Shown: positions 44,925 through 64,000 of the stretch, in pieces | Position numbering within the stretch: position 1 is the stretch's first letter | How the letters are laid out: every line of letters starts with the position of its first letter | Assembly (NCBI GenBank): GCA_030610885.1 | Contig: JAUWQW010000001.1 | Location: forward strand, 5,317 to 69,316 | Origin: Candidatus Aminicenantes bacterium | GTDB lineage: Bacteria; Acidobacteriota; Aminicenantia; UBA2199 | Length of the DNA stretch: 64,000 nt | Direction of reading: 5' to 3' | Translations under genes and position numbers: made by a program | The notes under the pieces: generated by a model | The model's input: only the letters and a program-made list of their open reading frames with translations | Told to the model about the DNA's origin: nothing | The model's database searches: none

Positions 44925-46475
44925 TTGAGTGTAATGTTTAATAAAAAGCTTTCATTTCTTATAGGAACAATAATCATTTTAATGATCATTATGGCATACC
45001 TTTCAGCCCTCAATATTTACCTTAGGGGAGATGACTTTGAATGGCTCAACTCAATATACGGTTGTTGGGAACAGCCATTAAGTTTATTTTCGACAATCAA
45101 CAATTTTTTCAGACCAATGGTTAAGCTTTCTTACCTATTGAATTATACTCTGTTTGGCACAAATACCCCTTTTTATGCAGCAACAACAATCTTGATTCAC
45201 CTTGGGAATGTTTTATTATTGTATATCTTGATTTTGAGAATCACACGCAGAATAATTCCTGCTTCAATCACCTCACTTGTTTTTGGTATTTCCCCGCTAT
45301 ACAGCGAAATTACTTTATGGTCAGCAGCAAGGCCGGACTCTATTATGCTTTTATTTATACTAAGCTCTTTAATCGTAGTAGCCAAACCCGGGAAACAAAT
45401 TAAAAAAAGGGATTTTTTCCTATTATTTATATTTGGATTAGGGGCAGCTTGTTCAAAAGAAACCTGGATTATCCTTCCCTTTGTTTTAATAAGTTTTCTG
45501 ATTTTAATAAAAAAGTATACAATTAGAGATGCAGTAAAGAGCTCTTTTGTGATTATCTTTTTGTTAATATTATATCTGGTTTTTTTTATAGTAGTGCCTA
45601 TAATTTCAAATGCTCCTTCTCCAACAAATTATGCTGACTATGACATGAATTACGGATTGAAAAAAGTAGGGTATTTAATTTTTAAATATACTGGATTTGG
45701 GAATTTATATACGGGTGAAATCTGGCAAATATTGCTTGTTTTTGTATCATTTAGTGGGTTTGGGTTTTTACTCTTTTGTCAAAAAAATAGACTGGCTTTC
45801 TGGGGTATGGCTTTTATGATTCTTTCAATGCTTCCCACTATTCTTATAAAGTATGCACCATCTCGATATAACTATCTTCCTCTTATGGGATTCTATATAA
45901 TGGTAATTGCCTTTTTTGAAAAAGGGATAGAATGGTTATCAAAAAAGTATAAAATTAAGAAAATTTATATATCAATCGTTATTATTACTACCTTAGTCTT
46001 TTATTTATCTTTTCAGTATATTATGTTGCAATGGGAAATAAAAGACTATAAATATTTTGGAAATTCACACAAACAAGTGGTTAATATGTATAATAAGGTA
46101 AAAGATAAATTATCTCTCAATCAACCTATAATTTTTATAAATGCAGGCACTAAAAAAGCTGTAAGTGAAGCGTCACAAAGTGTTCAAGGATATTCCAAAT
46201 TATTATTTGTAAGAAGGCATGGAATATGGCAGATGGTCTATCTTGCTTCTCTGGCAAATTTTTCAGGGAAACCTTTCAAGTATTTGATGATCCCTATTCC
46301 CAAAAAGGAATTGGAAAGTGTAATTAAAGGAAAGTTTAGAGTACTTGTATTTAAAGATAATGGTTTTTCTTTTACTGAAAAATATAATACAAGCCTTAAA
46401 GAATTCTATAATAGATATCACTGCCTTCCAGATCAAGTCAAGGCTCTACAGTTTGTAAACATAAAAAGAGAATGA
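44925..46475 (+). CDS. polytopic membrane protein, GT-C fold PMT/TMTC (DUF1736-type) glycosyltransferase-like, no TPR domain
   Basis: After TM1 there is a DD motif (YLRGDDFEWLNS), then FRPMVKLSYLLNYTLFGTNTPFYAATTILIHLGNVLLLYIL. This is the same pattern as the TMTC-like protein at 55736 (YMPIVILSHTVEFHFFNLNPLPYHTHNLILHLINCILIFYL). There are more than 10 predicted TM helices and a C-terminal soluble domain. Confidence 0.5.
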   Translation: MSVMFNKKLSFLIGTIIILMIIMAYLSALNIYLRGDDFEWLNSIYGCWEQPLSLFSTINNFFRPMVKLSYLLNYTLFGTNTPFYAATTILIHLGNVLLLYILILRITRRIIPASITSLVFGISPLYSEITLWSAARPDSIMLLFILSSLIVVAKPGKQIKKRDFFLLFIFGLGAACSKETWIILPFVLISFLILIKKYTIRDAVKSSFVIIFLLILYLVFFIVVPIISNAPSPTNYADYDMNYGLKKVGYLIFKYTGFGNLYTGEIWQILLVFVSFSGFGFLLFCQKNRLAFWGMAFMILSMLPTILIKYAPSRYNYLPLMGFYIMVIAFFEKGIEWLSKKYKIKKIYISIVIITTLVFYLSFQYIMLQWEIKDYKYFGNSHKQVVNMYNKVKDKLSLNQPIIFINAGTKKAVSEASQSVQGYSKLLFVRRHGIWQMVYLASLANFSGKPFKYLMIPIPKKELESVIKGKFRVLVFKDNGFSFTEKYNTSLKEFYNRYHCLPDQVKALQFVNIKRE

Positions 46476-46498
46476 ATGAAATTCAAATGAGTAGTTAA

Positions 46499-47218
46499 AT
46501 GAAAAAAAATAAAATATTAATTATTATTCCCACTTTTAATGAATGTGGAAATATCAGTATTCTTATGAAACAGATCATTGAAACCGTTTCTAATATTGAT
46601 ATCTTAGTGATTGATGATGATTCCTTTGATGGAACTGCACAGGAAGTAATGGCTTTTTCAAAAGTTACTAAAACAAAAATTGATATTATTGTCCGAAAAG
46701 GAGTTCGAGGCCTTGGGACTGCATATACAACAGGATTCAAATATGGATTGAAGCATCAATATGATGTGATCATCACAATGGATGCAGATCTCTCTCATAA
46801 TCCAGATCATTTACCTGCTTTCCTGGATGCTATTGAGAAATATGATATAGTTGTAGGGTCGAGGTATATTAAACATGGTGGAACGATCAACTGGAGGATC
46901 CGCCGCATTTTATTAAGTTGGCTTGCCAATAAATTTGCCAGGTTTGTATTAGGACTGGGAGGACATGATCTAACATCAGGTTTTCGAGCTTATGGTAGAT
47001 CTATTCTTGAAACAATTGATCTGGATAAAATAAAGTCAAATGGATATTCTTATCTTGTTGAGATGCTTTTTCTTACAAAGAAAAGGGGTGCTCAGATCAC
47101 AGAAATCCCAATTATCTTTGTGGACCGCACAATGGGTAAATCAAAGATATCCAAGCAAGAGATATACAGGGGAGCCTTTACATTGTTGCGTCTCCGCTTT
47201 TTTAGTCATGAACGTTAA
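46499..47218 (+). CDS. GT2-family polyprenyl-phosphate sugar synthase (Dpm1-like dolichol/polyprenol-phosphate mannosyltransferase), soluble form
   Basis: ILIIIPTFNECGNI, DDDSFDGT and DADLSHNP are the GT-A DxD region. 239 aa with no TM segment, typical of a Dpm1/Ppm1 catalytic subunit. Confidence 0.75.
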   Translation: MKKNKILIIIPTFNECGNISILMKQIIETVSNIDILVIDDDSFDGTAQEVMAFSKVTKTKIDIIVRKGVRGLGTAYTTGFKYGLKHQYDVIITMDADLSHNPDHLPAFLDAIEKYDIVVGSRYIKHGGTINWRIRRILLSWLANKFARFVLGLGGHDLTSGFRAYGRSILETIDLDKIKSNGYSYLVEMLFLTKKRGAQITEIPIIFVDRTMGKSKISKQEIYRGAFTLLRLRFFSHER

Positions 47219-48125
47219 TCTAAAATTTGTCAGATGTCCGCTTTGTAATCATAATAACACCCGGCTTATCTATCCAGCAACATCAAAATCCAATCAAATA
47301 AAGCACAAAGACTCTTATATATGTACGAGCACAGGTTTATCAAATCATGGTGATATTGTTCAATGTAAGAACTGTAAAATGGTTTATAATAATCCTCAGC
47401 CAGATGCGGATCAATTGATAAATTTCTATAAAGAGGTTGTGGATCCATCCTATATACTACAGAGTAAAGGAAGGGAACTTACATTTAAACATACTATCAG
47501 TCAACTTCAAGAATACATGAAACCACCCGGGAATTTGCTTGATGTTGGATGTTATACTGGAATTTTTATGGAGACTGCAATTGCTTCAGGTTGGACAGTC
47601 TATGGTGTAGAATTGAGTTCATGGGCAGCATCAATTGCACAGAAATTGGGAAAAGGGGCTGTATTTGAGTGTGCTCTTGATCAGATCCAATTACATTCAT
47701 CCAGTATGGATGTAGTTACAATGTGGGATGTAATTGAACACCTTTCTAAACCAACACAAATTTTAAAAAAGGTTGCTTCTTTGCTCCGGCCAGGTGGTAT
47801 TTTGGCATTAAGTACATATATGATTGATAGTTGGGCAGTAAAAGTGCTTGGAAGAAGATATCCTTTTTTTATGGATATGCATGTTGTTCATTTTTCAAGA
47901 GATACTCTATCTCGTATGTTATGTATGTTGGGTTTTGAAATCCTAAGTATAAGAAAACATAAGCGTACGATTATACTGGATTATCTTTTGGACAGGACAT
48001 GGAATTTATTACCTGTGTTAAAACCAATGCTCAAACCTTTAGCTCGCTGTCAATTGATTAAAAAGCCAATAAATCTTAGCTTTATGGGACTTGTAAATGT
48101 CTATGCGCGCAAAAAAAATTCTTAA
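47208..48125 (+). CDS. class I SAM-dependent methyltransferase with N-terminal Cys4 zinc ribbon
   Basis: The zinc ribbon is CPLCNHNN...CKNCKM. The SAM-binding motif is LLDVGCYTGIFMETAIASGWTVYGVELS. Motif II is VVTMWDVIEHL. ATG 47208 overlaps the upstream GT2 gene by 11 nt. The track ORF from 47040 is an out-of-frame overlap artifact. Confidence 0.7.
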   Translation: MNVNLKFVRCPLCNHNNTRLIYPATSKSNQIKHKDSYICTSTGLSNHGDIVQCKNCKMVYNNPQPDADQLINFYKEVVDPSYILQSKGRELTFKHTISQLQEYMKPPGNLLDVGCYTGIFMETAIASGWTVYGVELSSWAASIAQKLGKGAVFECALDQIQLHSSSMDVVTMWDVIEHLSKPTQILKKVASLLRPGGILALSTYMIDSWAVKVLGRRYPFFMDMHVVHFSRDTLSRMLCMLGFEILSIRKHKRTIILDYLLDRTWNLLPVLKPMLKPLARCQLIKKPINLSFMGLVNVYARKKNS

Positions 48126-48209
48126 ATTTTTTAAAACATTTCTCTGAAACCCTGTACAATTAATAAATTCGTTTTGCTTTTATGGGAAAAATTTAATAGA
48201 ATTGTAAGT

Positions 48210-49481
48210 ATGAAAAAATTTTCAGTAGATCTTATTGAGGATAATTTTTTTCATGATTTCACTTATGATTCATATAATAGAAAAGAGTATATTTTTAAGA
48301 AAAAAACGGGAATATTAAAAAGAGAATATAATGAAAGCTGGCTTAGCAGTTCTTTTGAGTTAAACTCAATAAATGATGCAAAAGCATATATTTCAAAGGG
48401 TTTTAAATCTTCAAGTTTTAAAAACTTTAAAACCAATAACATTGAGTTTAGCCCAGGTAAAGTGTTAAGAGACAATGAATTTATTTTAAATTTTTTACGA
48501 TCACTTGATTTAAAAGAATGGAAGATCGTATTTAGAGTAAAGGCATTAAACCGCCTTATTATTAACAATAAAAATAAAGGATTGAGAAATGGATTTACAC
48601 ATTATAGTATTATAATAAAATTAAAATTAAATAACTGTAGAAATTACATTGAGATTGGAGAGGGATCAACTGGTAGCTTTAAATTCAATCAAACAGGGCT
48701 TAGCTTGAGAATAAAAGATGTGATTAATAATCATAATAATAAAATAAAAAATGATTTTAAGGATAGAATTCCAGTAATTCTGAACTCAGGTGATGGAGGT
48801 ATAATCTTTCATGAAATCCTTGGGCATTCATTAGAGGTTGATTATATTTATCAAAAGTTGTCTCCAATATCAATATATGATGTGGGACATCAAATAATAT
48901 CAAAAAATGTAAATTTAGTTGCTGATTACGAAGGAGATATGTTTTTCTCAAACAGAATGTGTGATGATGAAGGAGTATCCTCAAAATCTTCTATGTTAGT
49001 TGAGAATGGAATATTAAGGAACTTTATTTCAGACATTTATTATAAAAATCTGTTAAATATAAAAAATTCTGGTTATTCAAGGGTAGAAGATTTTTCAAAA
49101 GTTCCAATGCCGAGAATGTTTGCAATTTACTTAAAACCAGGCCCCTATAATGCTCAAGAGTTAATTGAATCAACAAAATATGGAATATATGCAAAAGAAT
49201 TTGGTGAGGGAAAAACTTATTTTAATAAAAATTCATTTTTCTTTAATATAAAAGAGGCATATTTGATTGAAAATGGTAAACTTACTTCTCCTCTTGGTGA
49301 TGTTATTGTGAAAGGAAATATTATGGAAACCTTAAACTCAGTTGATATGGTAGCTGATGATTTCAGATATGACAAGGGTATCAGTTATTGTTTCAAGAAT
49401 GGCCAGACATTAAATGTCAGGGTTGGTCAACCAACAGTTAAGATAAATAACCTTTTTGTTAAAAGTGGTTTAAATGATTGA
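48210..49481 (+). CDS. tldD: TldD-family metalloprotease
   Basis: TldD/PmbA fold with HExxxH (FHEILGHSLE) and the conserved GxC..DDEG region (MCDDEGVSS). An alternative TTG start lies at 48174. Confidence 0.7.
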   Translation: MKKFSVDLIEDNFFHDFTYDSYNRKEYIFKKKTGILKREYNESWLSSSFELNSINDAKAYISKGFKSSSFKNFKTNNIEFSPGKVLRDNEFILNFLRSLDLKEWKIVFRVKALNRLIINNKNKGLRNGFTHYSIIIKLKLNNCRNYIEIGEGSTGSFKFNQTGLSLRIKDVINNHNNKIKNDFKDRIPVILNSGDGGIIFHEILGHSLEVDYIYQKLSPISIYDVGHQIISKNVNLVADYEGDMFFSNRMCDDEGVSSKSSMLVENGILRNFISDIYYKNLLNIKNSGYSRVEDFSKVPMPRMFAIYLKPGPYNAQELIESTKYGIYAKEFGEGKTYFNKNSFFFNIKEAYLIENGKLTSPLGDVIVKGNIMETLNSVDMVADDFRYDKGISYCFKNGQTLNVRVGQPTVKINNLFVKSGLND

Positions 49482-50766
49482 GAAAATACTCTTACAAGGA
49501 AAAGCTGCCGGGTTTTCAACAGTTGAGGTTTTCCATGAAAAAAGGGAGAAACAGGAATATGAGAAACTTTTAGATTATAATGCTTCTCATTTCGTAAAGA
49601 ATGATAATATATCAGTCAGAGCTTTCTGGGAATTTGGAGAGCCTGTTGGATTTAATTTGTCAAAACCTGATATAAAATCAATTAAAACAGGATTTTCAAG
49701 TGTTTGTTCTTTAAATATTCCAGGAAGAAATAAAAATTATGCATATTTATTACCCTCACATGCTCAAAAAGTAAAGATAAATATTTTTGATGATTCTATA
49801 AAAAGCTTTGATATAAAGAAATTTGATGAGTTAGTAGAAAAGATCAAAGAAATTCTTGTATCTTTTCCAGGGCTTTCTCTAAAAAGAATTAAGTTTTTTA
49901 AAGTGTTAAAGAAATGTTATATTTCAAATACTAAATGGCTTAATGCTAAATATAAAAAAACAAATTTCAACCTGACTATTAATTTTGAATATAAAAATAA
50001 TTCAATTGAAATAAGTGAGAATGAGATCTATTTTAATCGAATAAATCCATTCAGAATGATTTCAAGAGCGTTTAATTTATTAAATTCTCTTACAGATAAT
50101 AATATACATATCAAAAAAGATTGTGCTTTAATATTTTCTCCTGAAGCATCTGTTTTTGTCTTAAGAGAGTTTTCTGATAATTTTTGTTTAAGCTTTGAAG
50201 GGAGTTTAAAAAAAATAAGTTTCCCATCAGTATTAAGTATTATTGAAAATCCTAATCTGGATTATCAGACTGGTTCTGTGCCGTTTGATGATGAAGGCGT
50301 TCAATCAGGAGAAAGATATTTAGTAAATAAGGGTGTTTTTTTGGATCGGATTTCAGATATAAAGAGAGCTTTTTACAACAAAAGAGCTTGTTCTACAGGT
50401 AATGGTTTTAGGAGTGATAAGTCAATATTTCCATTTCCAAGGTTTTCCAACTTTTTCATTAAACCTTCGGTTTTAAGTTTAAATAAATTAATGATGGATG
50501 CAGGAAAAGGTATTCTTGTTTCTTTAATTAAATTAAAAAATATTGAGAATGATGAATGGATGTTTTCTGCATATGGTTACAGGTTTGAAAATGGAGATAT
50601 CAATGAGCCTGTCCATTTTTACTTTAAAACCTCTTTTTTTTCATATTTTCTGAATATATTAAAAGTATCAAAAGAGATAAAATTTTTTAATATAAATTAT
50701 AATATTGGATCTCCATATTTGCTGGTTAATGCAAAGCATTTGTATGAAAGTGTTCTTCAAATTTAA
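49474..50766 (+). CDS. TldE/PmbA-family protein, partner of TldD
   Basis: Second TldD/PmbA-family paralog, lacking HExxxH. Conserved PFDDEGVQS region. It overlaps tldD by 8 nt, the usual TldD/TldE pairing. Confidence 0.6.
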   Translation: MIEKILLQGKAAGFSTVEVFHEKREKQEYEKLLDYNASHFVKNDNISVRAFWEFGEPVGFNLSKPDIKSIKTGFSSVCSLNIPGRNKNYAYLLPSHAQKVKINIFDDSIKSFDIKKFDELVEKIKEILVSFPGLSLKRIKFFKVLKKCYISNTKWLNAKYKKTNFNLTINFEYKNNSIEISENEIYFNRINPFRMISRAFNLLNSLTDNNIHIKKDCALIFSPEASVFVLREFSDNFCLSFEGSLKKISFPSVLSIIENPNLDYQTGSVPFDDEGVQSGERYLVNKGVFLDRISDIKRAFYNKRACSTGNGFRSDKSIFPFPRFSNFFIKPSVLSLNKLMMDAGKGILVSLIKLKNIENDEWMFSAYGYRFENGDINEPVHFYFKTSFFSYFLNILKVSKEIKFFNINYNIGSPYLLVNAKHLYESVLQI

Positions 50767-50814
50767 GTGTTATTCTGTATGTAATGTAATTAACTAATTA
50801 AGAATCAGAGCAAT

Positions 50815-51831
50815 TTATGTACATAGCTTTTTTATATTCAAAAATTCTTCATTAGCTTCATATATTAGATCTTCTATTAATTTTTTTACAGGCTTTATTT
50901 CATTTATAAGCCCTACACTCTGTCCAGCCATTAATGAACCATGTTCAATGTCTCCCTCCTGCACAGCTTTCCTTAATGCTCCGATCCAGAAATTTTCCAC
51001 TTGGAATTGAGCCTCTAATCGTGATATTTCATTGTTTTTCATTTTTCTAAGTAAATTGAGCTGTAAATTCCCAAAATCTTCAATGCCTTTGTTTTTTAAT
51101 GCTCTTACTGCTACAACTGGTAGAGATGAGTCATATTGTGGAGTGGCAAAGGCTTCCCTTGCTCTTGCTGTTTTGAATTTTTCTTTGAATGCTGGATGTG
51201 CAGGACTCTCTTCTGCCATTGCAAATATTGTTCCCATCTGAACTCCGGAAGCACCCATTAAAAAGAGATGGCAGATCATTTTACCTGTAGCAATCCCACC
51301 TGCAATAAAAATGGGAATTTCAGGGAATTTGAAAAGTACTTGCTGTATTAGAACAATAGTTGAAACATGGCCTATATGTCCACCTGCTTCAGAACCTTCG
51401 AGAATTAATGCGTCGGCTCCATAATCGATCATACGTGTTGCAATCGATTCAGTTGATGCAAAACAAAGGACTTTAGCTCCAGCCTGTTTTGCTATCTTTA
51501 CTTCATTTTTTCTTGGGAAGCTTCCAGCAAATACTATAAATGGGGCTCCCATATTGCTTGCTTTATTTAAATGTTCTAAATAATTAGGTGATATTGTTAT
51601 TAAATTTACTGCAAAGTTTGCTTTTTCTTTCTTTAAAATTTTTATCTCATTTTCAAAAATACTTACAGGCATATTACCTGCAGCAAGAACTCCAAAGCCT
51701 CCAGCATTGCTAACTGCTCTTACAAGGTTTGAATTACTTATCCATGTCATAGCTCCTGAAATTAAAGGGTAATCAACCTTAAGAAACTTTTGACCTCTTT
51801 TCCAAAATTTTAGATCTTTTAAATTTTTCAT
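50815..51831 (-). CDS. NMO-family FMN-dependent oxidoreductase (FabK-like enoyl-ACP reductase II / nitronate monooxygenase family)
   Basis: GAMTWISNSNLVRAVSNAGGFGVLAAG, GGHIGHVST and IAGGIATGKM are motifs of the TIM-barrel FMN-binding NMO family. Confidence 0.65.
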   Translation of the reverse strand: MKNLKDLKFWKRGQKFLKVDYPLISGAMTWISNSNLVRAVSNAGGFGVLAAGNMPVSIFENEIKILKKEKANFAVNLITISPNYLEHLNKASNMGAPFIVFAGSFPRKNEVKIAKQAGAKVLCFASTESIATRMIDYGADALILEGSEAGGHIGHVSTIVLIQQVLFKFPEIPIFIAGGIATGKMICHLFLMGASGVQMGTIFAMAEESPAHPAFKEKFKTARAREAFATPQYDSSLPVVAVRALKNKGIEDFGNLQLNLLRKMKNNEISRLEAQFQVENFWIGALRKAVQEGDIEHGSLMAGQSVGLINEIKPVKKLIEDLIYEANEEFLNIKKLCT

Positions 51832-51974: not shown

Positions 51975-51991
51975 TTGGTATGATAATTGCT
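51975..51991 (+). promoter_or_regulatory. candidate sigma-54 (-24/-12) promoter for the pilin gene
   Basis: TTGGTATGATAATTGCT matches TGGCAC-N5-TTGCW at TGG (51976-78) and TTGC (51987-90), with correct 12-nt GG-to-GC spacing. The predicted transcription start is near 52002. The Shine-Dalgarno sequence AAGGAGG lies at 52015-52021, upstream of ATG 52029. Confidence 0.4.
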
Positions 51992-52028
51992 ACATTATAA
52001 GTGTAAAATTTAAAAAGGAGGTCTTTTT

Positions 52029-52493
52029 ATGAGAAAAATAATGAAAAGCAAAAAGGGTTTTACTTTGATTGAGCTGTTAATCGTTATTGCAATTATTGGT
52101 ATTATTGCAGCTATTGCTATTCCAAATCTATTAACTGCTCTTCAGAAAGCTAAACAGAAAGCAACAATGGGTGATATGAAATCTATTGGAACTGCTGTTG
52201 AGTCTTATATGACTGATAATTATTTGGCACCAGGTACTATTACTGACGCTGATATTACAGTTTTTTACATGAAAAAAATACCAATTTCAGATGGATGGGG
52301 TAATGGATGGAACTATACAAGAGGCGGAACAGCTTTCGATGAATATTCAATCGGTTCAGGTGGAAGAGACGGAAGTTTTGGCGGTTTTGGTCAGTTTCAG
52401 ACAGTACCTTACATTGTAAATACTCTGTCTGGTTTTGACAATGATATCATCTTTTCGAATGGAACTTATACTTTCGGTCCAAGAGTAAAATAA
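52029..52493 (+). CDS. prepilin-type N-terminal cleavage/methylation domain protein (type IV pilin or GspG-like major pseudopilin)
   Basis: Class III signal peptide MRKIMKSKKG|FTLIELLIVIAIIGIIAAIAIP, with Gly-1, Phe+1 and Glu+5. GspG-like LTALQKAKQKATMGDMKSIGTAVESYMTDNYLAP. No Cys residues. Strong Shine-Dalgarno sequence and its own terminator. Confidence 0.8.
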   Translation: MRKIMKSKKGFTLIELLIVIAIIGIIAAIAIPNLLTALQKAKQKATMGDMKSIGTAVESYMTDNYLAPGTITDADITVFYMKKIPISDGWGNGWNYTRGGTAFDEYSIGSGGRDGSFGGFGQFQTVPYIVNTLSGFDNDIIFSNGTYTFGPRVK

Positions 52494-52507
52494 TTTAAAA
52501 ATCCTTA

Positions 52508-55709: not shown

Positions 55710-55735
55710 AATAGAGAATTTAATACGAAGAATGT

Positions 55736-57566: not shown

Positions 57567-59423
57567 TTATTGGCTTATATAACTGATTTTAAAAACAAAG
57601 AGATTGTTTTTTCTGAAAATCGGTTTTAGAGTTCTTATAAAAGAGGAGAATTTTTTTAATTCATTTTCACTCATTCTTTTATAATCTTTTTGCAGGCGTA
57701 TGAATTCTCCCATATTAAATATAATGAAATTGATTTTGTCTTTTTTTAATTCATTAATAAATTCTTTTTTATTATTACTATTTTTTAAATATCTTTTCAA
57801 AATTGAGTAGTCATATGGAGAAGATACCTGATAGGCACGCTTTAGATAAAAGTTCCTGGATTCTCCCACAATAAGGATTTTTGACTCCTTTGTGGAGTTT
57901 TTATTGATAAAAGATATTGCAGGATAGGTTGGGAAGGTTAAAGTTTTGTATTCTTCAATGCTGAGCTTTCCTGAAAAGAGATAATATGAGCGAAAAATGC
58001 GCTCCATCAAAGCAAAAGATGTTAAGAGATTTAAAAATATAATGATAAAAAAGATATATTTTATGATCTTTTTTGATTGAGATTCATAAGCAATTACAAC
58101 ATATATTGATAGAAATAAAAAAGAAATATACCAGCAACGAATACTCATCTTAAAAAAAGCTCCCGCAAAAATCGTTAATAGAGAAAATATAAGTAAGAAG
58201 TAATTTTTTTCTTTTTTTAGTATAAGAAATGGTAAAAAAATCAAAAATAAAGCTCCAATAATTCCACCTGAGCCTAATTGGGAAAATGATATGTTGTAAG
58301 GGAATTTAATCACATCCTTGAAAGAGTGAAACACCTTGCTTGTATCTTTTGTCATTACAGCAGACCTTGAGGAATCCCAGAATTCACTTTTAAAAGAGTT
58401 GTGGAAAAATGGGAAAACGGGATTATTTGTAAAATTGTAATTTTTTATCATTAATGGCAATAGTATTCCTAAAACAATCAATCCGAAGATAATTGCTTTT
58501 TTTGAATCAAACCATTTTTCTTTTATAAATATGGCAATGAAAAAGATTCCCAGGGGAATTATATTTGTGTATTTCACACCTATACTGAAGCCCCAGAATA
58601 TAGCAGATATGTTCACCCTTTTTTTTAAAAAATATTTTATGCCAATAAAAATGAAAAACGCACTTAAAAGATCATTCTTAACTATTGATATAAGGAACAC
58701 ACTCATTGGCATAGAGATTATGGTTAATAATAATATGTTTCTTTTCTTTATTTTAAAATTTTCAATTGCAAAATCTATAATAGAAAATATTAAGATAATT
58801 CCTATAAAAAAGTGGAAAAAACGTGGGACCATATCTCCAGCAAAAACAGATGGTATTAATGAGATCTCATAATAGATAGAGGTGTTTGCGTATAAAAATT
58901 GTAGGGCTGAAATAAATCCCGAATTTTGAAGATAAAGGTTTGGTATTCCAAGGTGAAAAACTAAGGTGTCATAAAAAGAGGATGGAAGAGAAGCATATAT
59001 TAATGGGAAAACGAAAATAAGGTATTCAAGGGATGGTCTTTTAATAAAAGAATTTATTGTTTTATAAAAATTTGATTTATGATTTTTAATAATAAAAAAG
59101 AGAATTATTACTGGAATTAGATAAAAGAGTATAATTATCCAGGCTGAGAGAATTTTGAAGAATGATATTATAAAGAAGAAAAATGTTGTGAAAATTAATC
59201 CTGTGCCAAAGCTTTCTAATACTCCGATTTTTCCCTTATTAAAAAATTTTATAAAGAAAAAACCATAGATGAATATTTCAAAAATTAATAAAAGAGCCTT
59301 TAGAAAAGGAAGAATTACATAAATAGGGTATCTAAGGAAAAGTGCATTGATGGTTACTAAAATTGCAAAAATAATAAGAATATTTATTATAAATTTATTG
59401 GATTTGATATTATCAATATTCAT
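57567..59423 (-). CDS. large polytopic integral membrane protein, function unknown (possibly another GT-C-like enzyme)
   Basis: 618 aa with more than 12 hydrophobic segments across the whole length. I recognise no soluble domain. Co-oriented and closely spaced with the downstream radical SAM/GT2 genes. Confidence 0.4.
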   Translation of the reverse strand: MNIDNIKSNKFIINILIIFAILVTINALFLRYPIYVILPFLKALLLIFEIFIYGFFFIKFFNKGKIGVLESFGTGLIFTTFFFFIISFFKILSAWIIILFYLIPVIILFFIIKNHKSNFYKTINSFIKRPSLEYLIFVFPLIYASLPSSFYDTLVFHLGIPNLYLQNSGFISALQFLYANTSIYYEISLIPSVFAGDMVPRFFHFFIGIILIFSIIDFAIENFKIKKRNILLLTIISMPMSVFLISIVKNDLLSAFFIFIGIKYFLKKRVNISAIFWGFSIGVKYTNIIPLGIFFIAIFIKEKWFDSKKAIIFGLIVLGILLPLMIKNYNFTNNPVFPFFHNSFKSEFWDSSRSAVMTKDTSKVFHSFKDVIKFPYNISFSQLGSGGIIGALFLIFLPFLILKKEKNYFLLIFSLLTIFAGAFFKMSIRCWYISFLFLSIYVVIAYESQSKKIIKYIFFIIIFLNLLTSFALMERIFRSYYLFSGKLSIEEYKTLTFPTYPAISFINKNSTKESKILIVGESRNFYLKRAYQVSSPYDYSILKRYLKNSNNKKEFINELKKDKINFIIFNMGEFIRLQKDYKRMSENELKKFSSFIRTLKPIFRKNNLFVFKISYISQ

Positions 59424-59428
59424 ATTTT

Positions 59429-60862
59429 CTATTTAGTTTTTCTCATAAAAATCACTTTAAGCCCTGCTTTTGTCTTTCTTTTAAATTCTCCAAAAGAGCT
59501 TACTTTGAACAGATTTTTAATTATATAGGAAGGCCTTGTGTAGAATGTTTTGTACCCTTTTATAAGGAGCTTTTCAAGCTCTTGTCTTGTGAAATTTTCT
59601 TCCCAGCATGGAGGTTCAAAATTTTCATCCGGGTTCTCAGCAAATTCTTTCCATACATCATTTTTAAAAACCCCTTTTGATAAACCCTGTATATAAATAT
59701 CTGTTGCAGGAAATGGAGTAAGTATGGTCATATGAACAAAATCAGGTTTTAACCATTTTGATACTCTGAAAGTTTCAAAAATATCTTCTATTGTTTCATC
59801 AGGAGAACCTATCATAAAGTAAGCTAAAGTCTGGATTTTATATTTTTTTGTGAGTACGAATATTTCTTTTGCTTTTTGTAATGTAATACCCTTTCTCAAA
59901 ACTTTGAGAATTTTTTCTGTTCCTGCTTCAATGCCATAATGTATTCCTCTACATCCCGCCTTTTTTAATAATTGCAATAATTCTTCATCAAGAGTATCGA
60001 CTCGAGCTCTTATATCAAAGCCAATATCAAGGTCTTTTTTTATTATTAATTCACATATTCTCTTTACTCTATCTTTTCTTACTGTAAAAGTGTCGTCATA
60101 AACTAAGAATTCATGTATTCCCAGTTTCAAACATTCCTCAATCTCTTGTACAACTCGTTCAGCACTCATTGCCCTGAATATGTTTCCAAGATGAGGTCTA
60201 TTGCAAAATGAGCATTTATATGGGCATCCTCTGCTTGTGAAAAGCGTTGTTATTGGTGTTCTTTTGGCTAAAATGGAGGTGTATTTTTTATATGGAGTTA
60301 ATTCTCTTTTTGGAAAAGGGAGTTTATCAAGTTCATTTTCAGGAATTAGTACAGGCAATCCTGTGTGTACTATTGTCCCATCCTTGTTCTTATATACAAG
60401 CCCTTTTATGTCCTTTAATTTTTTAAAATCATATATATTATCAATAAGTTTAGCAAATATCTTTTCACCTTCACCCAAAACCACGAAATCAACACCTTTG
60501 ATGTTTATAGTTTCTCTTGCATATATATTTACATGAGGTCCGCCAAGAACTAATTTACATTCAGGTTTTATCTTTTTTACAATATTTATGGTTTTTATAA
60601 CATCAATAAGTGTAAATGTCATTGCTGTTATTCCCACTACTTCAAAATCTGTGTGTTTTATTCTTTGTTCCAAAGAAGCATAGGTTAATTCTTCTACTTG
60701 AGAATCAATTACATATACTTTGTGTGCTGTTTTTTCGAGTAAATAACCTGCAAGGAATAAAAGCCCCAGAGGCGGATTGTATCCTCTTTCTGATTCTATT
60801 ATAGATGGGTTATTCCCCATTAATTCATTAAAAGAGGGTGGATTGATAAGTAATATATTCAT
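59429..60862 (-). CDS. B12-binding domain radical SAM protein (class B radical SAM, candidate methyltransferase/sugar-modifying enzyme)
   Basis: N-terminal cobalamin-binding Rossmann-like region (ILLINPP...PPLGLLFLAGYL), then a radical SAM core with LFTSRGCPYKCSFCN (CxxxCxxC). 477 aa. Confidence 0.8.
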   Translation of the reverse strand: MNILLINPPSFNELMGNNPSIIESERGYNPPLGLLFLAGYLLEKTAHKVYVIDSQVEELTYASLEQRIKHTDFEVVGITAMTFTLIDVIKTINIVKKIKPECKLVLGGPHVNIYARETINIKGVDFVVLGEGEKIFAKLIDNIYDFKKLKDIKGLVYKNKDGTIVHTGLPVLIPENELDKLPFPKRELTPYKKYTSILAKRTPITTLFTSRGCPYKCSFCNRPHLGNIFRAMSAERVVQEIEECLKLGIHEFLVYDDTFTVRKDRVKRICELIIKKDLDIGFDIRARVDTLDEELLQLLKKAGCRGIHYGIEAGTEKILKVLRKGITLQKAKEIFVLTKKYKIQTLAYFMIGSPDETIEDIFETFRVSKWLKPDFVHMTILTPFPATDIYIQGLSKGVFKNDVWKEFAENPDENFEPPCWEENFTRQELEKLLIKGYKTFYTRPSYIIKNLFKVSSFGEFKRKTKAGLKVIFMRKTK

Positions 60863-60873
60863 TTTATATGATG

Positions 60874-61737
60874 CTAATTGTTCCTTTTATTTATCATATC
60901 TGCAAGCATTCCTATAGCAAGTATTTGAATAGATGAGATAAAAAGTATTGAAACAGTTGTATCCAATATTTTGGGAAGAGCTAAATAGCTATATATAAAA
61001 ACTATTAAAGAGATTAAAAGCAAAATTAAGCTAACAGGAACAAATATTTTTAGAGGATTAAAATACATTACTGTTCTGATAATGAGTTGAATAAAGTTTA
61101 ATGTATCACGTATTGGTCTTATCTTACTTTTACCCTTTCTTTTCATGTAGTTTATTGGAATATATTTAATTTGCATATCATTGGTTAACATTGCAAGTGT
61201 TATTGTGGTTGTAAAGGAAAAACCATTTGGTAAGATTTTGAAAAATCTTAAAGCATCTTCTTTTTTAAAAAGCCTGAGCCCTGAATTTATGTCTGGAATT
61301 TTAAATCCAGCAAGGTAATTTGCTAATTTTCCTATAAACCATTTTGCTGGTTTCCTTATAATTGGGATTTTTACACTTTTCCCTGTCCTGGAACCTACAA
61401 CCATATCATAATTTTTGATTTTATTATACATTTCAGGAATCTTTTCTATTGGGTAAGTGCCGTCAGCATCAGTAATTGCAATTACATTATATTTACTTTT
61501 TTTAATTCCTGATTTTATGGATGCTCCATATCCCATATTTCGTTCATGTTCAATTAAATTGAAGTTTATCTTACTCTGTTTTAGAGTTTTGTTTGTATTA
61601 TCTGTTGAACCATCGTTAACAATAATAATTTCATAATTTTTTAGATCACTCTTTTTGAGAATAGTATCTATTTTGGTAATTGTTTTTTTTATATTTTTTT
61701 CTTCATTATAAACAGGTACTATTATTGATAAGCTCAA
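60874..61737 (-). CDS. GT2-family polyprenyl-phosphate glycosyltransferase (GtrB/ArnC/Dpm1-like) with C-terminal TM helices
   Basis: LSIIVPVYNEEKNI, VNDGSTDNT and DADGTYP are GT-A motifs. There are two C-terminal TM helices (LKIFVPVSLILLLISLIVFIY, ILFISSIQILAIGMLA), typical of membrane-anchored polyprenyl-P-sugar synthases. Confidence 0.8.
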   Translation of the reverse strand: MSLSIIVPVYNEEKNIKKTITKIDTILKKSDLKNYEIIIVNDGSTDNTNKTLKQSKINFNLIEHERNMGYGASIKSGIKKSKYNVIAITDADGTYPIEKIPEMYNKIKNYDMVVGSRTGKSVKIPIIRKPAKWFIGKLANYLAGFKIPDINSGLRLFKKEDALRFFKILPNGFSFTTTITLAMLTNDMQIKYIPINYMKRKGKSKIRPIRDTLNFIQLIIRTVMYFNPLKIFVPVSLILLLISLIVFIYSYLALPKILDTTVSILFISSIQILAIGMLADMINKRNN

Positions 61738-61782
61738 AAAAGCCTCCTTTTTTGTTGAAACTTCTTATAAATTTATTTAGAT

Positions 61783-62421
61783 CTATTCTATTACCCATCT
61801 AATTACCTCGAATGTTTCCGCAAAATCTGTTCCAATTTGAGTACCTCTTGTTTTTGCCCAACTTATAACAAAATCTTCTGTTGCATAGTGTTTGTCTTTT
61901 TGTGAATTGTATGCTTTTAAAGCAAAAACCTTTTTTTCTATATGCTTTTTATTAAGTTTAACAAACATATTCGTATGAAATGTAATGTTATTCCATGGAA
62001 GTTCATACCCCACAATGCTCACCTGTTTGAAAGCCCTTATACTTTCCATAGCAACTGTTTGATGATCTTGATGAAGGTCATTGGGAGATGGGATGAAAAC
62101 CAGGTCAGGTTTAATATCTCTTTTTATTTTGACTAATTCTTCTAAGATCTCCTGTCTGATATAATTTAATTTCCTGACCTCATAATTATAGATTATCAAG
62201 TTATTTTTTGGAATACCAAGGCGTTTTGTTGCCTCTTTTACCTCTGTTTTAAGAATATCTTTAGGCCATCCATGGGGAAGTGATTCTTCAGCAGTTGAAA
62301 ATGCAGTATAGTAAACCTGTTTGCCCTGTTCAATAAATTTTGATATTGTACCGCCACACCCGAATTCTCCATCATCTGTGTGTGGAGCTAAGATAAGAAT
62401 TCTTTTAAAACTTTCTTTCAT
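61783..62421 (-). CDS. PIG-L/LmbE-family N-acetylglucosaminyl deacetylase
   Basis: ILILAPHTDDGEFGCGGT and the HQDH zinc-binding region (DLHQDHQTVAM). 212 aa. Confidence 0.8.
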   Translation of the reverse strand: MKESFKRILILAPHTDDGEFGCGGTISKFIEQGKQVYYTAFSTAEESLPHGWPKDILKTEVKEATKRLGIPKNNLIIYNYEVRKLNYIRQEILEELVKIKRDIKPDLVFIPSPNDLHQDHQTVAMESIRAFKQVSIVGYELPWNNITFHTNMFVKLNKKHIEKKVFALKAYNSQKDKHYATEDFVISWAKTRGTQIGTDFAETFEVIRWVIE

Positions 62422-62448
62422 TTTTCCCCCAGAAATTTTTCATAATAA

Positions 62449-63078
62449 TTAAAAATCATATAAATCCTTTTTATAGCAGAAAAGAATAAAATCATGAGGT
62501 ATGTATGTGTGATCAAATCTTACATTTCTACAGAATTCAAAGGTTTTTGAAATAATTTTAACAGGATCATAATAGAATGTTTCTTTATTTGGTCTTTTTG
62601 TTAATGAAGATGTCATAGAAATAGCAATGCCTATATTTGCTGTTTCATACATTTTTTTGATCAGTTTCATGGTTATATCAGTATTCGAATTTCCTTCAAA
62701 TCTAAGGTTTAATGGACCTATGGAAATGATGTAATCAAAAGTTTCATTCATCTCTTTTTCAATGATATCATGAACAAAAAAATGATTTTGTAATTCTGGA
62801 TACTTTCTTTTTGCAGCTTCGATCATATGCTTATTAATATCAATACCAGTATAGTCTGTATGTATCCCGTGTTGTTTTAAAAAACCATAAAATCCACCAA
62901 TTCCACACCCCACATCAAGTATTCTTTTATTGTTGAAATTGCCTAATTCCAATATTTTCTCAAATCTTTTTAAATGAGAGATTTCTGATTGTGCAACTGA
63001 ATGATGCTCATCTGAAGAACTTTTTAAAGTATTTGAAAAGAATCTAATGTTTTGTTCTTTTATTTTTTTATAATTCAC
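62449..63078 (-). CDS. class I SAM-dependent methyltransferase
   Basis: Motif I ILDVGCGIGGF, motif II (YTGIDINKHMIEAAKRK) and motif III (FDYIISIGPL). Confidence 0.75.
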   Translation of the reverse strand: MNYKKIKEQNIRFFSNTLKSSSDEHHSVAQSEISHLKRFEKILELGNFNNKRILDVGCGIGGFYGFLKQHGIHTDYTGIDINKHMIEAAKRKYPELQNHFFVHDIIEKEMNETFDYIISIGPLNLRFEGNSNTDITMKLIKKMYETANIGIAISMTSSLTKRPNKETFYYDPVKIISKTFEFCRNVRFDHTYIPHDFILFCYKKDLYDF

Positions 63079-63081
63079 TTT

Positions 63082-63801
63082 TTATGCTTCCTTTTCTATT
63101 AAAATTTTACCACTTTCATAGCCTAAATTAAATAACAGATCAATAATTGATAAACCCGGGATAAATTGACCCCATAATTGATTATATTCCGGATGCTTAA
63201 AATCATACACAATTAGTTCAATGTCATTCTTTTTAAATAGTTCTTTTTTTTGATATCTCTGCCCCCCAAATCCTGAAACATATTGTTTTGCACCAATTGA
63301 ATTACAGATTGAGATAAGCTTTTCTGTTGATTTCCCCTTTATATCTTTTAATTCAGAGGATTTGATAGTATTGGTTTTTATGTTCAGTTCATTAGCCAGC
63401 CATTTTAATAGATCAATATTTAAATCTACAAGAAATTTGTGATTTTTGTTTATTATATTTTCAAAATCATAGAAATATTTTTTAAAATGTAGAGCCTTTG
63501 CATAATTGGTTTTTATTGTTCCTAAAACCTTTTTTCCCCATTTGATATTATTTTCAATTTCAACTTCAGAAATAAGTTGTGGGTAGCGTCCCTTCTGTTT
63601 CACAGGTATGGTTAGCCATTGATCGCTTTTAATAGTTTTTATTTTAACCCTGCTAATAATACTTCCCTTTGTAAACTGAACATCATCAAGAAAGACAAAT
63701 GTATCACATTTAGACCATTTGTAAAAAAAACCAAGCCATGGCATAAAATTTGGTTGATGGATTCCTGCACACAGAGACTTTTTATTATTTTTCATATTCA
63801 T
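63082..63801 (-). CDS. WbqC-like family protein (polysaccharide biosynthesis-associated)
   Basis: GIHQPNFMPWLGFFYKWSKCDTFVFLDDVQFTKGS is the WbqC-family N-terminal signature. The start overlaps the upstream GT1 gene end. Confidence 0.65.
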   Translation of the reverse strand: MNMKNNKKSLCAGIHQPNFMPWLGFFYKWSKCDTFVFLDDVQFTKGSIISRVKIKTIKSDQWLTIPVKQKGRYPQLISEVEIENNIKWGKKVLGTIKTNYAKALHFKKYFYDFENIINKNHKFLVDLNIDLLKWLANELNIKTNTIKSSELKDIKGKSTEKLISICNSIGAKQYVSGFGGQRYQKKELFKKNDIELIVYDFKHPEYNQLWGQFIPGLSIIDLLFNLGYESGKILIEKEA

Positions 63802-64000
63802 CTAATATGTTTCTCAATAATATGTCCAGGTTTTTTAATTGTGATTCTGTGGAGTAATTTTTGATTTTTTGAGGATCAGGTATTATAGAGCTACATAGAT
63901 CAGGTTTTGTTACTAAGTCAAATATAAGGTCAGATATTTCTTTTGGCTTTTGGGGGTGAACAACCCATCCTGTTTTTGTATCTTCAATTATATCAGCAAG
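63785..64000 (-). CDS. glycosyltransferase family 1 (3' end only; gene continues beyond window end)
   Basis: The minus-strand frame is open from the window edge: ...LADIIEDTKTGWVVHPQKPKEISDLIFDLV...LLRNILDEYEK*. This is the typical GT1 C-terminal region. The stop is at 63785-63787. Confidence 0.55.
   Translation of the reverse strand, partial: LADIIEDTKTGWVVHPQKPKEISDLIFDLVTKPDLCSSIIPDPQKIKNYSTESQLKNLDILLRNILDEYEK

Follow-up and report, generated by a model that had tools for sequence, protein, structure and literature searches.

The final 19 kb (positions 44925-64000) of a 64,000-nucleotide (nt) stretch of DNA from a Candidatus Aminicenantes bacterium, the whole of which is hereafter called the window, hold an operon in which a prepilin gene is followed by two genes for membrane enzymes of the Wzy_C family. 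This triad is the only invariant unit of the region, and further sets of glycosyltransferase (GT) genes lie on both sides of it. The best explanation, which is tentative and for which the arguments are close to balanced, is that the pilin is provided with dedicated O-oligosaccharyltransferases resembling TfpO and PglL, beside modules of the Gtr/Arn type, with at least three separable modules in all; it draws on analogy with characterised loci. Module 1 extends over positions 44925-48125 and module 2, which contains the triad, over 51976-55709, while module 3, on the minus strand, starts at 55736 and continues past 64000. An original prediction made on this DNA had described an envelope glycosylation island, and the region is indeed rich in periplasmic glycosylation machinery: it encodes three GT-C enzymes, two GT2 proteins resembling polyprenyl-phosphate-sugar synthases and two Wzy_C enzymes. 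The same prediction had counted four large membrane enzymes, three of them with tetratricopeptide repeats (TPRs). Three do have TPR or TPR-like domains, but the large membrane enzymes (three GT-C and two Wzy_C) number five by the present count.

Conservation of the pilin triad

The first Wzy_C enzyme, of 480 amino acids (aa), has orthologues that are 45-62% identical to it and mostly come from named Aminicenantes. Among its orthologues of at least 35% identity in other species, a pilin gene stands immediately upstream in 41 of 41 loci and a second Wzy_C gene immediately downstream in 36 of 36, whereas for homologues below 35% identity both figures fall to 5 of 13. These counts refer to loci with enough sequence, and the metagenome scan behind them added 80 loci to three long Aminicenantes-type contigs (L086-L088; loci are cited by such L numbers). 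In these three contigs the triad follows directly after prs-rplY-rpsF-rpsR-rplI-dnaB, unlike its context in the window, and its presence in differing genomic contexts implies that it moves as a unit, frequently with additional pilin copies. The link between pilin and Wzy_C enzymes is thus strongly backed by an operon that is invariant in about 50 other loci. The neighbours of the triad, in the window as well as in L086-L088, include no wzx, wzz, wza or waa core genes.

Of 58 other loci, 9 have GT-C genes at the flanks of the triad; these belong to three subfamilies (TMTC-like, TMEM260-like PF11028, and DUF8201), and several of them can occur at one triad, as in L095 with three and in L147 with five. 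The TMEM260-like GT-C genes, found at L086 and L087 among others, encode proteins of 512-516 aa that score about 24-25 bits against PF11028, at its gathering score (L086:13392-14942, L087:15294-16844, L142, L144, L172:7926-9464). They lie convergent to or near the triad, occupying the place that the TMTC-like GT-C gene with TPRs has in the window.

The pilin gene and its expression signals

The prepilin gene of the original prediction was recovered, with N_methyl and T2SSG domains in its product. The protein has a class III signal peptide (KKG/FTLIE, with G-1, F+1, and E+5) followed by a GspG-like globular domain; GspG-like motifs are present, and its score against the GspG family TIGR01710 is 68.6 bits, under the cut-off of 88.85. 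The 69 distinct orthologues share the motifs DGWG, YS..S.GRD, and NDI.FSNG. Nearly all of them end in Lys or Arg, as does the pilin of the window (...GPRVK), and none ends in Ser or Thr; the conserved Ser and Thr residues are internal (S107, S110, S143, and T148).

A strong AAGGAGG Shine-Dalgarno sequence precedes the start codon of the pilin gene, and upstream of it lies a -24/-12 element, TGGTATGATAATTGCT, that fits the GG-N10-GC rule of sigma-54 promoters and is the sole such match in the window, against 0.21 expected. Of 62 orthologous pilin genes, 52 are preceded by the element, as a rule at a distance of 43-55 nt from the start codon, with a background of 0.023 per 170 nt. Its conservation implies that the pilin is under the control of RpoN and an enhancer-binding activator, as pilA is in Proteobacteria. 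A sigma-70 promoter was dropped as a candidate, the conserved sigma-54 element being preferred: the sigma-70 scan gave 123 matches against 115±8 expected, and is uninformative because the DNA is 29% GC.

Directly downstream of the pilin gene, the transcript can form an intrinsic-terminator-like hairpin with a folding energy (dG) of -24.9 in the window and a z score of about -7 to -10 in near-identical copies from the same species. The hairpin recurs in about 42 of 47 loci (dG -21 to -32), and in an alignment of 37 distinct orthologous copies 88.7% of the cells are paired and five pairs show compensatory changes, a covariation score reached in 0 of 500 shuffles and one that collapses in shifted registers. 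The pilin terminator is real and conserved. The proposal that the pilin has its own promoter and terminator is therefore sustained, the promoter being of the sigma-54 and not of the sigma-70 type.

The first Wzy_C gene is annotated to start only 14 nt past the pilin gene, so that the hairpin covers the first 14 codons of its open reading frame (ORF). Some orthologous loci (e.g., L110, L113, and L116) have no ATG ahead of the hairpin, and the ATG at 52526 of the window sits in its loop. The true start of this gene may thus be downstream of the annotated one, and since some loci have no start codon before the hairpin, the conservation of the 'N-terminus' MKKSGW..PAAFF may be due in part to constraints on the RNA and not on the protein. 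Taken together, the sigma-54 promoter, the strong ribosome-binding site, the terminator and the overlapping Wzy_C genes point to an abundant, regulated structural pilin with attenuated read-through into the two enzymes. Such an organisation, with a sigma-54 promoter, a terminator and read-through, mirrors that of pilA loci, where sigma-54 promoters are typical.

The two Wzy_C enzymes

The two Wzy_C genes overlap by 53 nt, and their products score 57.6 bits (480-aa protein) and 74.7 bits (609-aa protein) against Wzy_C (PF04932), above the gathering cut-off of 31.7. The original prediction that each of them is fused to C-terminal TPRs is borne out by Pfam for the first, with repeats at about residues 354-445 and matches to TPR structures in the PDB spanning 354-442. 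For the second, Pfam reports no TPR, and the assignment comes from profile-profile comparison: the C-terminal domain, as a profile of 39 orthologues, aligns with the TPRs of the TPR-bearing GT-C family described below with an hhalign probability of 95.3% (E 2e-8). Neither protein matches an NCBIfam ligase family. Weak matches to the WaaL structure 7TPG were obtained with the family profile of the 480-aa protein (E 0.0081, over the catalytic loop) and with the 609-aa protein (E 0.0046). The TPR domains of both are probably periplasmic, since a Lys/Arg-rich loop precedes the last transmembrane (TM) helix; hydropathy segmentation is too noisy for the topology as a whole, and it was used for this positive-inside argument on the last helix.

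The GT-C enzymes and their partner genes

Two of the membrane proteins had been predicted to be GT-C enzymes of the DUF1736/PMT type, one of them fused to TPRs like the TMTC O-mannosyltransferases. Their GT-C nature is supported by hhalign, by a match to locus L005, by motifs and by homologues, but the Pfam families PMT_2 (PF13231) and DUF1736 (PF08409) match neither the 516-aa nor the 582-aa protein even at E<=10. The 516-aa protein has no direct match in Pfam, NCBIfam or by PDB sequence, and neither the N-terminal part of the 582-aa protein nor its GT-C-domain profile matches any PDB sequence. Against the family profile of the 582-aa protein, however, the 516-aa protein aligns over 317 columns with an hhalign probability of 99.1% (E 6.5e-19) and with GDD, PLxxE, SKE(T), and SRYxY in common, and to judge from their sequences the two are clearly paralogues in the membrane domain. 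Both also match the PMT_2 gene of L005 (E 5e-16 and 4e-11; the 516-aa protein at 30% identity, E 4e-11). PMT_2 itself matches 2 of 19 members of the TPR-bearing family (best E 1.7e-7), and among the at least 1400 homologues of the 582-aa protein, some carry PMT_2 or are named O-mannosyltransferase.

In the AlphaFold2 (AF2) model of the 582-aa protein (pLDDT 90.6), the last TM helix finishes at residue 390 and 12 TPR helices lie beyond it; fold searches with the full-length model were swamped by the TPR domain. An alignment of 43 sequences of this family has D37 and D38, H129, P130 and E134, K185, R334, and Y337 as invariant residues, which correspond to the TMTC motifs M1, M3, M4, and M7 and to the HP..E segment of human TMTCs (PMC7801869). 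The published motifs include M2 (SHKSYRP), M3 (RxD), M4 (KE(T/Q)xxT), and M7 (ERxxY), with DUF1736 as the TM7-TM8 loop, which carries M5 (DW) (PMC7801869). By eye against these motifs, and not by alignment to TMTC sequences, equivalents, some of them partial, can be recognised for M1 (DD), M2 (Y-x-P-L, at Y68-x-P70), M3 (RxD, at R142-K-D144), M4 (K185, and KET in the 516-aa protein), and M7 ((E/D)RxxY, at D333-R334-x-x-Y337), and the segment LLWGVHPLRVE resembles LLFAVHPIHT of TMTC3. The 516-aa paralogue has the DD motif and no TPR. DUF1736 was found in none of 19 members of the TPR-bearing family at E<=0.1, nor is there a conserved DW in the corresponding loop. Since the DUF1736 loop and the DW motif are unrecognisable, these proteins are referred to as TMTC-like and not as TMTC members, although the predicted analogy holds for motifs and architecture.

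The TPR-bearing family is widespread, with at least 600 stretches of GTDB genomes from many phyla carrying its motif; the best 80 of them were examined with flanks of up to 10 kb per side, and a GT2 gene is nearby in 12-16 of these. The closest database homologue of the 582-aa protein belongs to a tandem array of three or four paralogues with a small GT2 (L173:4923-16286 and L174:3874-11508), an arrangement that recalls one donor synthase serving several acceptor-specific transferases.

In module 1, the 516-aa protein is accompanied by a GT2 and a methyltransferase dependent on S-adenosylmethionine (SAM). The best NCBIfam matches of this GT2 are AglJ, PpgS, dolichyl-P-hexose transferase, and ArnC, all under their cut-offs, and it has no hydrophobic segment, in agreement, at subgroup level, with the predicted soluble Dpm1-like polyprenyl-phosphate-sugar synthase. 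The methyltransferase start overlaps the GT2 stop by 11 nt, and the trio of methyltransferase, GT2, and PMT_2 genes recurs in L005. The N-terminus of the methyltransferase (47208-47400) is Cys-rich (CPLC...C..CKNC) and resembles a zinc ribbon.

Module 3 begins with the TPR-bearing 582-aa protein and continues with a 618-aa protein. The latter had been described as a polytopic membrane protein of unknown function, but it belongs to DUF8201 and, by predicted fold, is a third GT-C enzyme. A direct PDB sequence search with it gave nothing useful. With its AF2 model (pLDDT 87.9), the top 22 Foldseek matches in the PDB are all GT-C enzymes (E down to 6.5e-5), among them DPY19, STT3, ALG12/9, ArnT (5F15, TM-scores 0.49/0.55), PglB, and AftD. 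The protein also has a weak match to the LIC_10190 family. Sequence kinship between DUF8201 and the TPR-bearing family is not claimed (hhalign probability 6%).

Profile searches agreed with the original prediction on the B12-binding radical SAM enzyme, the PIG-L deacetylase, the two SAM methyltransferases, the WbqC-like protein and the GT1 gene, as well as on a second, membrane-anchored GT2. The anchor of the latter corresponds to a C-terminal hydrophobic region at about residues 222-283, and its full length aligns with AglJ and PgfS of NCBIfam below the cut-off; both GT2 proteins are assigned at the subgroup level because all their NCBIfam equivalog scores are below the cut-offs. The radical SAM enzyme is closest in NCBIfam to HpnJ (205 bits) and BchE (202 bits), both far under the cut-offs. 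Past the end of the window, Pfam identifies a UDP-GlcNAc 2-epimerase (Epimerase_2, E 1e-107) and two more GT-B glycosyltransferases (Glyco_trans_1_4) (L001). A literature search on WbqC function gave nothing useful.

Part of this module is a unit of its own, since the order of the GT2, the B12 radical SAM and the DUF8201 genes (positions 57567-61737 of the window) is preserved in L170:2967-7836, with the same orientation, a methyltransferase gene within the series and identities of 58%, 67%, and 55%, respectively. The cassette of L170 is away from any triad, and PIG-L is not a member of it. Within the cassette, conservation is highest for the radical SAM enzyme, which suggests the radical modification of a lipid-linked sugar. 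Other DUF8201 homologues are solitary (L002 and L171), adjoin a GT2 (L003, L004, and L005) or occur in other clusters rich in GT-C genes (L005 and L172). A hopanoid pathway like that of HpnI, HpnK, and HpnJ was discarded for the GT2, PIG-L, and radical SAM genes: the radical SAM enzyme is equally near to BchE and HpnJ and far below both cut-offs, PIG-L is outside the L170 cassette, and no HpnI-type match was seen.

Genomic setting of the modules

The original prediction had treated the region as one contiguous island of about 19 kb. The block is, however, split at 48174-51831 by three genes that the prediction does not mention, tldD and pmbA (PmbA_TldD_3rd, E 1e-43 and 3e-28) and a gene for a FabK-like enzyme (NMO, E 2e-47), which are not glycosylation genes. 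Nor does base composition show an island signature, with a GC content of 0.286 in 44925-64000 against 0.289 in the rest of the window (28.8% for the whole of it) and overlapping values at third codon positions (GC3); horizontal acquisition as an island was rejected, as GC and GC3 resemble those of the flanks. GC falls to 0.23-0.24 at 53000-56000, over both Wzy_C genes, where GC3 (0.21-0.25) is like that of other genes; this dip is attributed to the Phe/Ile/Leu/Lys-rich membrane sequence of the Wzy_C proteins and not to a foreign origin.

The window is matched by an 80-kb metagenome contig (ENA ERZ25746585 NODE_20), and the same genes are found on sister contigs that are 172-181 kb long. For three different proteins, the closest homologues with a name come from metagenome-assembled genomes (MAGs) of Candidatus Aminicenantes or Acidobacteriota, with 50-60% identity. 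All modules stand side by side in the same-species contigs L091 and L092, and the remaining genes of the block accompany the triad solely in contigs of the same species (L090-L092 and L106). Outside the species, the conserved units are sub-modules, namely the pilin triad, the GT2-B12 radical SAM-DUF8201 cassette and the GT-C-GT2-methyltransferase set, and in CP070627, a complete Aminicenantes genome, about 320 kb separate the triad from a DUF8201 gene. Because elsewhere the sub-modules recur alone and dispersed, the 19-kb block is regarded as a species-specific juxtaposition of separable modules.

Proposed mechanism and alternative explanations

The gene families, folds, motifs, operon structure, promoter, and terminator described above are observations; the donors, the acceptors and any cross-talk between the modules in what follows are inferred. 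In module 2, the strongly translated prepilin gene would be driven by sigma-54 and terminated, with read-through expressing both Wzy_C enzymes. One or both of these would then transfer a glycan linked to undecaprenyl pyrophosphate to an internal Ser or Thr of the pilin, and perhaps to other proteins, by analogy with pilA-tfpO, PglL/PglS, and TfpM, while their TPR domain would hold the protein acceptor; an internal residue is proposed because the C-terminal residue of the pilin is never Ser or Thr. In modules 1 and 3, the GT2 would load a sugar onto polyprenyl phosphate at the cytoplasmic face, and the lipid-linked sugar might be tailored by the methyltransferase in module 1 and by the B12 radical SAM enzyme and the PIG-L deacetylase in module 3. 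It would next be flipped, and one of the GT-C enzymes (the 516-aa TMTC-type protein, DUF8201 or the TMTC-like protein with TPRs) would pass the single sugar on to an acceptor. Proteins may be the acceptors of the GT-C enzymes generally, and for the TPR-bearing one they are the most plausible acceptors, as they are for TMTC and TfpW. A lipid-linked oligosaccharide able to feed the Wzy_C enzymes could come from the combined action of the GT-B transferases, the UDP-GlcNAc 2-epimerase and WbqC. A more ambitious version, in which a TPR-guided pair of O-oligosaccharyltransferases for a GspG-type pilin, of a class not recognised before, works together with neighbouring TMTC-like, TMEM260-like, and DUF8201 GT-C enzymes on the same filament or on envelope proteins, with a functional bacterial counterpart of the metazoan TMTC and TMEM260 branches of O-mannosylation and a donor modified by the B12 radical SAM enzyme, is rather improbable.

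For the triad, O-glycosylation of the pilin is the best explanation because the characterised Wzy_C enzymes encoded next to a pilin, TfpO/PilO, TfpM, and PglS, modify that pilin as its O-oligosaccharyltransferases (PMC9829042); moreover, 21 of 31 predicted PglL homologues are pilin-linked (PMC3643930). Several observations weigh against it. Sequence alone cannot tell O-oligosaccharyltransferases, WaaL ligases, and Wzy polymerases apart (PMC3643930), a WaaL-type ligase, weakly matched, is the one relative of solved structure that was found, and PglL_A (PF15864) was not reported for either Wzy_C protein even at E<=10, an absence that is weak evidence in a distant phylum, as the model was built from proteobacterial sequences. 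The periplasmic placement of the Wzy_C TPR domains relies solely on crude hydropathy and the positive-inside argument. The pilin is GspG-like and does not have the C-terminal Ser or Thr used by TfpO and TfpM, the reading does not account for the constant retention of two Wzy_C genes, and the window holds no pilus or secretion machinery, no flippase and no initiating phosphoglycosyltransferase. With respect to the GT-C enzymes, their presence beside 9 of 58 other triads may be due to chance, because GT-C families are multi-copy, and none of the 80 best loci of the TPR-bearing family has pilin, Wzy_C, PIG-L or WbqC homologues within the flanks. To our knowledge, no GspG-type pseudopilin is known to be glycosylated.

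The main competitor, unlikely but to be taken seriously, is a role in lipopolysaccharide (LPS) or exopolysaccharide synthesis, where the Wzy_C pair would act as WaaL and/or Wzy, the GT2 and GT-C sets would decorate lipid A, core, O-antigen or another glycan, and the pilin would merely be co-transcribed. The WaaL-type 7TPG as the sole solved-structure relative of both Wzy_C proteins and the absence of PglL_A from them are in its favour. So is the content of module 3, which with WbqC, UDP-GlcNAc 2-epimerase and GT-B transferases has the look of a surface-polysaccharide cluster, and the pairing of GT2, deacetylase and GT-C genes mirrors the Arn/Lgm logic; ArnC/ArnT, GtrB/GtrC and the Lgm system of Bordetella decorate glycans by means of a GT2 and a GT-C enzyme. 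LPS genes (LpxK, KdtA-like, and lipid A acyltransferase) exist in Aminicenantes, and the GT-C, GT2, and DUF8201 genes of L005 have a GT9 heptosyltransferase-like gene as a neighbour. However, 41 of 41 loci, in varied contexts, have the pilin gene directly ahead of the Wzy_C pair, which would be difficult to account for if the two were functionally unconnected, the triad has no wzx, wzz, wza or waa core neighbours, and TPR fusions are typical of protein-binding modules. WaaL enzymes, moreover, are normally encoded within core-oligosaccharide clusters. A different use of the pilin, which we judge very improbable, is polysaccharide export, with the GspG-like pseudopilin and the two Wzy_C/TPR proteins forming a system for pseudopilus-assisted polymerisation, ligation and secretion and the pilin being a part of the machine and not its substrate, as in the cyanobacterial Hps system, which depends on pseudopilins. 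The GspG-like and not classical type IVa character of the pilin, its faint NCBIfam match to the HpsC pseudopilin (E 0.067), the extra pilin copies at many triads and the fact that Wzy_C proteins include polymerases would all fit, but the Wzy_C proteins match none of the Hps glycosyltransferase or ligase families of NCBIfam, there are no secretin, ATPase or platform genes nearby, and a sigma-54 promoter, when combined with a terminator and a strong ribosome-binding site, characterises the gene of an abundant structural pilin.

The view of the original prediction, in which the whole 19-kb block is a single co-inherited, multi-pathway system for protein O-glycosylation with all five membrane enzymes acting on envelope proteins, is improbable and largely contradicted by the dispersal of its parts in related genomes. 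It is consistent with the neighbourhood of the modules in L091 and L092, with the recurrence of several GT-C subfamilies near the triad (L095, L118, L147, L086, and L087) and with the TPR or TPR-like domains of three of the five membrane enzymes. Against it, three unrelated genes interrupt the block, its composition is that of the flanks, and outside the species the sub-modules are dispersed, as shown by the 320 kb in CP070627, by the triad-free cassette of L170 and by the 0 of 80 TPR-bearing GT-C loci with a pilin or Wzy_C gene in their flanks. The nearby wzx/wzz set that would have marked the cluster as an LPS O-antigen locus was not seen: neither wzx, wzz nor an initiating phosphoglycosyltransferase was found among the scanned ORFs of the window or the called genes of the next 3.7 kb, where the annotation is by Pfam only.

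Comparison with known systems

Pilin O-glycosylation by the Wzy_C pair, the reading favoured here, has its closest counterpart in the TfpO-type loci (pilA-tfpO/PilO of Pseudomonas aeruginosa 1244, TfpM of Moraxella, PglS/ComP of Acinetobacter, and PglL). They have in common a gene for a polytopic Wzy_C enzyme that follows a prepilin gene directly and on the same strand, and a pilin gene that is a strongly expressed unit with its own terminator. A. nosocomialis M2 is said to carry pilA, tfpO and pglL in tandem, as described by Harding et al. in 2015. The two Wzy_C enzymes are of unequal size here (480 and about 605 aa) as they are there, where TfpO has 440-470 aa and PglL 550-600 aa (PMC9829042). 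Despite these similarities, there are clear differences. Both enzymes here have C-terminal TPR or TPR-like domains, which are undescribed for TfpO, TfpM, PglL, and PglS, and the PglL_A motif of PglL is absent. While TfpO and TfpM use the C-terminal Ser or Thr of the pilin as acceptor (PMC9829042), the pilin here resembles GspG and has Lys or Arg as its last residue. The bacterium probably belongs to Aminicenantes and not to Proteobacteria. WaaL of Cupriavidus metallidurans (7TPG) has in common with them the Wzy_C domain, with the AHN His motif and a conserved periplasmic loop rich in Arg; at E 0.005-0.008 the matches are weak, the proteins of the triad have extra C-terminal TM and TPR parts, and their genes belong to a pilin operon and not to an LPS core cluster.

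The 582-aa protein resembles TfpW of P. aeruginosa Pa5196/PA7, a GT-C enzyme with a C-terminal periplasmic TPR domain; its gene lies downstream of pilA, and glycosylation of the pilin requires it (bioRxiv 10.1101/2020.04.19.049825). The likeness is one of architecture: both have about 11 TM helices, a first periplasmic loop with a DDx motif, a C-terminal TPR domain and a pilin gene nearby. Unlike tfpW, the gene is convergent to the triad instead of immediately downstream of the pilin gene, and the adjacency is not conserved, as a relative with 40% identity lies upstream of the pilin in L095 and most family members are far from pilins. No genes of the D-arabinofuranose pathway were seen. In common with metazoan TMTC1-4, the protein has a GT-C domain at its N-terminus, with about 11 TM helices, and TPRs that are lumenal or periplasmic, and TMEM260 also has a parallel, in that other Aminicenantes carry a TMEM260-like GT-C gene beside the pilin triad. 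It differs from TMTC in that the DUF1736 loop and M5 (DW) are undetectable, in having a paralogue without TPRs, and in the donor, which would be a bacterial polyprenyl-phosphate sugar.

Modules 1 and 3 can also be compared with the three-component periplasmic systems GtrA/B/C, ArnC/D/E/F/T, CsbB/YfhO, and actinobacterial Ppm1/Pmt. As in these, a GT2 synthase gene lies beside a GT-C gene, here twice, with tailoring genes in between, and PIG-L recalls ArnD. On the other hand, no flippase of the GtrA or ArnEF type was recognised here, the GT-C partners belong to uncharacterised families (DUF8201 and TMTC-like), and a B12 radical SAM enzyme is conserved in the GT2-DUF8201 cassette, for which we know of no precedent in such periplasmic glycosylation systems.

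Each of the ingredients has a known counterpart, namely the pilin-linked Wzy_C O-oligosaccharyltransferases, TfpW, the systems of GT2 and GT-C, and the prokaryotic TMTC homologues noted in PMC7801869. By contrast, the operon that, across the phylum, joins a GspG-type pilin to two Wzy_C enzymes bearing TPRs, along with its conserved sigma-54 promoter and terminator, appears to be undescribed in the searchable literature, as do DUF8201 as a family with a GT-C fold and the GT2-B12 radical SAM-DUF8201 cassette. Literature searches yielded no functional studies of bacterial TMTC-like enzymes or of a pseudopilin with an O-antigen ligase.

If the proposed functions are correct, pilin-linked O-oligosaccharyltransferases would extend beyond Proteobacteria, and Wzy_C enzymes bearing TPRs would be added to them, which could be of use in bioconjugate engineering, since their recognition of acceptors might be modular. 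In environmental bacteria, the TMTC-like and TMEM260-like GT-C genes are uncharacterised and occur in great abundance, as the at least 1400 homologues and at least 600 genome loci with the family motif illustrate; linking even one of them to an identified acceptor, for instance the pilin of an adjoining gene, would make a bacterial origin of TMTC/TMEM260 O-mannosylation experimentally testable. The GT2-B12 radical SAM-DUF8201 cassette would hint at a new modification of a lipid-linked sugar. For genome annotation, the region is a warning that a visually coherent 'island' may be a species-specific juxtaposition of independent modules.

Features of the region and flanking genes

Table 1. Coordinates (window positions) of the features discussed in the text.
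Feature	Position	Strand	Evidence or remark
GT-C glycosyltransferase, 516 aa, TMTC-type membrane domain, no TPR, soluble C-terminal tail of about 145 aa (module 1)	44925-46475	+	hhalign, L005 match
Soluble GT2, 239 aa, candidate Dpm1/PpgS/ArnC-like polyprenyl-phosphate-sugar synthase (module 1)	46499-47218	+	Pfam Glycos_transf_2 E 8e-27
Class I SAM methyltransferase, 305 aa (module 1)	47208-48125	+	Pfam Methyltransf_23 E 4e-25
TldD (interrupting gene)	48174-49481	+	Pfam
PmbA (interrupting gene)	49474-50766	+	Pfam
NMO/FabK-like flavin mononucleotide (FMN) enzyme (interrupting gene)	50815-51831	-	Pfam
Sigma-54-type -24/-12 promoter element TGGTATGATAATTGCT	51976-51991	+	53 nt upstream of pilin start codon
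Prepilin, 154 aa (module 2)	52029-52493	+	Pfam N_methyl E 4e-10, T2SSG E 9e-8
Wzy_C-family membrane enzyme, 480 aa, C-terminal TPRs	52508-53950	+	Pfam Wzy_C E 2e-15, TPR_1/2/8
Intrinsic-terminator-like hairpin, 17-bp stem and T-run	52510-52550	+	directly 3' of pilin gene
Second Wzy_C-family membrane enzyme, 603 aa (609 aa from TTG 53880), divergent TPR-like C-terminal domain	53898-55709	+	Pfam Wzy_C E 9e-21
TMTC-like GT-C, 582 aa, about 11 TM helices then about six C-terminal TPRs (module 3)	55736-57484	-	Pfam TPRs, AF2, motifs
DUF8201 protein, 618 aa, predicted GT-C fold and C-terminal alpha/beta domain	57567-59423	-	PF26626 in homologues, AF2/Foldseek
B12-binding (class B) radical SAM enzyme, 477 aa	59429-60862	-	Pfam B12-binding and Radical_SAM
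Membrane-anchored GT2, 287 aa, candidate AglJ/PgfS/GtrB/ArnC-like synthase	60874-61737	-	Pfam Glycos_transf_2 E 7e-30
PIG-L/LmbE deacetylase	61783-62421	-	Pfam PIG-L E 9e-21
SAM methyltransferase	62449-63078	-	Pfam Methyltransf_25 E 8e-12
WbqC-like protein	63082-63801	-	Pfam WbqC E 3e-74
GT1/GT4 gene, 3' end, 415 aa, cut by window end	63800-64000	-	L001 gene table

The upstream flank is ordinary chromosome, with genes for an ABC transporter and CHAT/PKD proteins, cysS, purL, uvrD, smc, cobA, ffh, and trmD, as well as FTCD, dnaJ-like, OmpA-domain, mtnA-like, and S46 peptidase genes. After the S46 peptidase gene there is a strong terminator-like hairpin (44748-44783, with a 16-bp stem and seven GC pairs), which marks the left transcriptional boundary of module 1. 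The tldD/pmbA pair is directly downstream of that module on the same strand, with a gap of 48 nt; a GT-C gene with TPRs, pmbA, tldD, and a GT2 gene also lie within 12 kb in a locus of a Synergistia MAG (L007), possibly by coincidence. Farther upstream, positions 4400-12523 hold a cluster that encodes a protease-like protein with a CHAT domain, two large proteins with PKD repeats and one of 648 aa without a family match, and on the opposite strand, at 2654-3926, a sigma factor of the extracytoplasmic function type is encoded with an anti-sigma-like gene bearing zf-HC2 and TPR domains.

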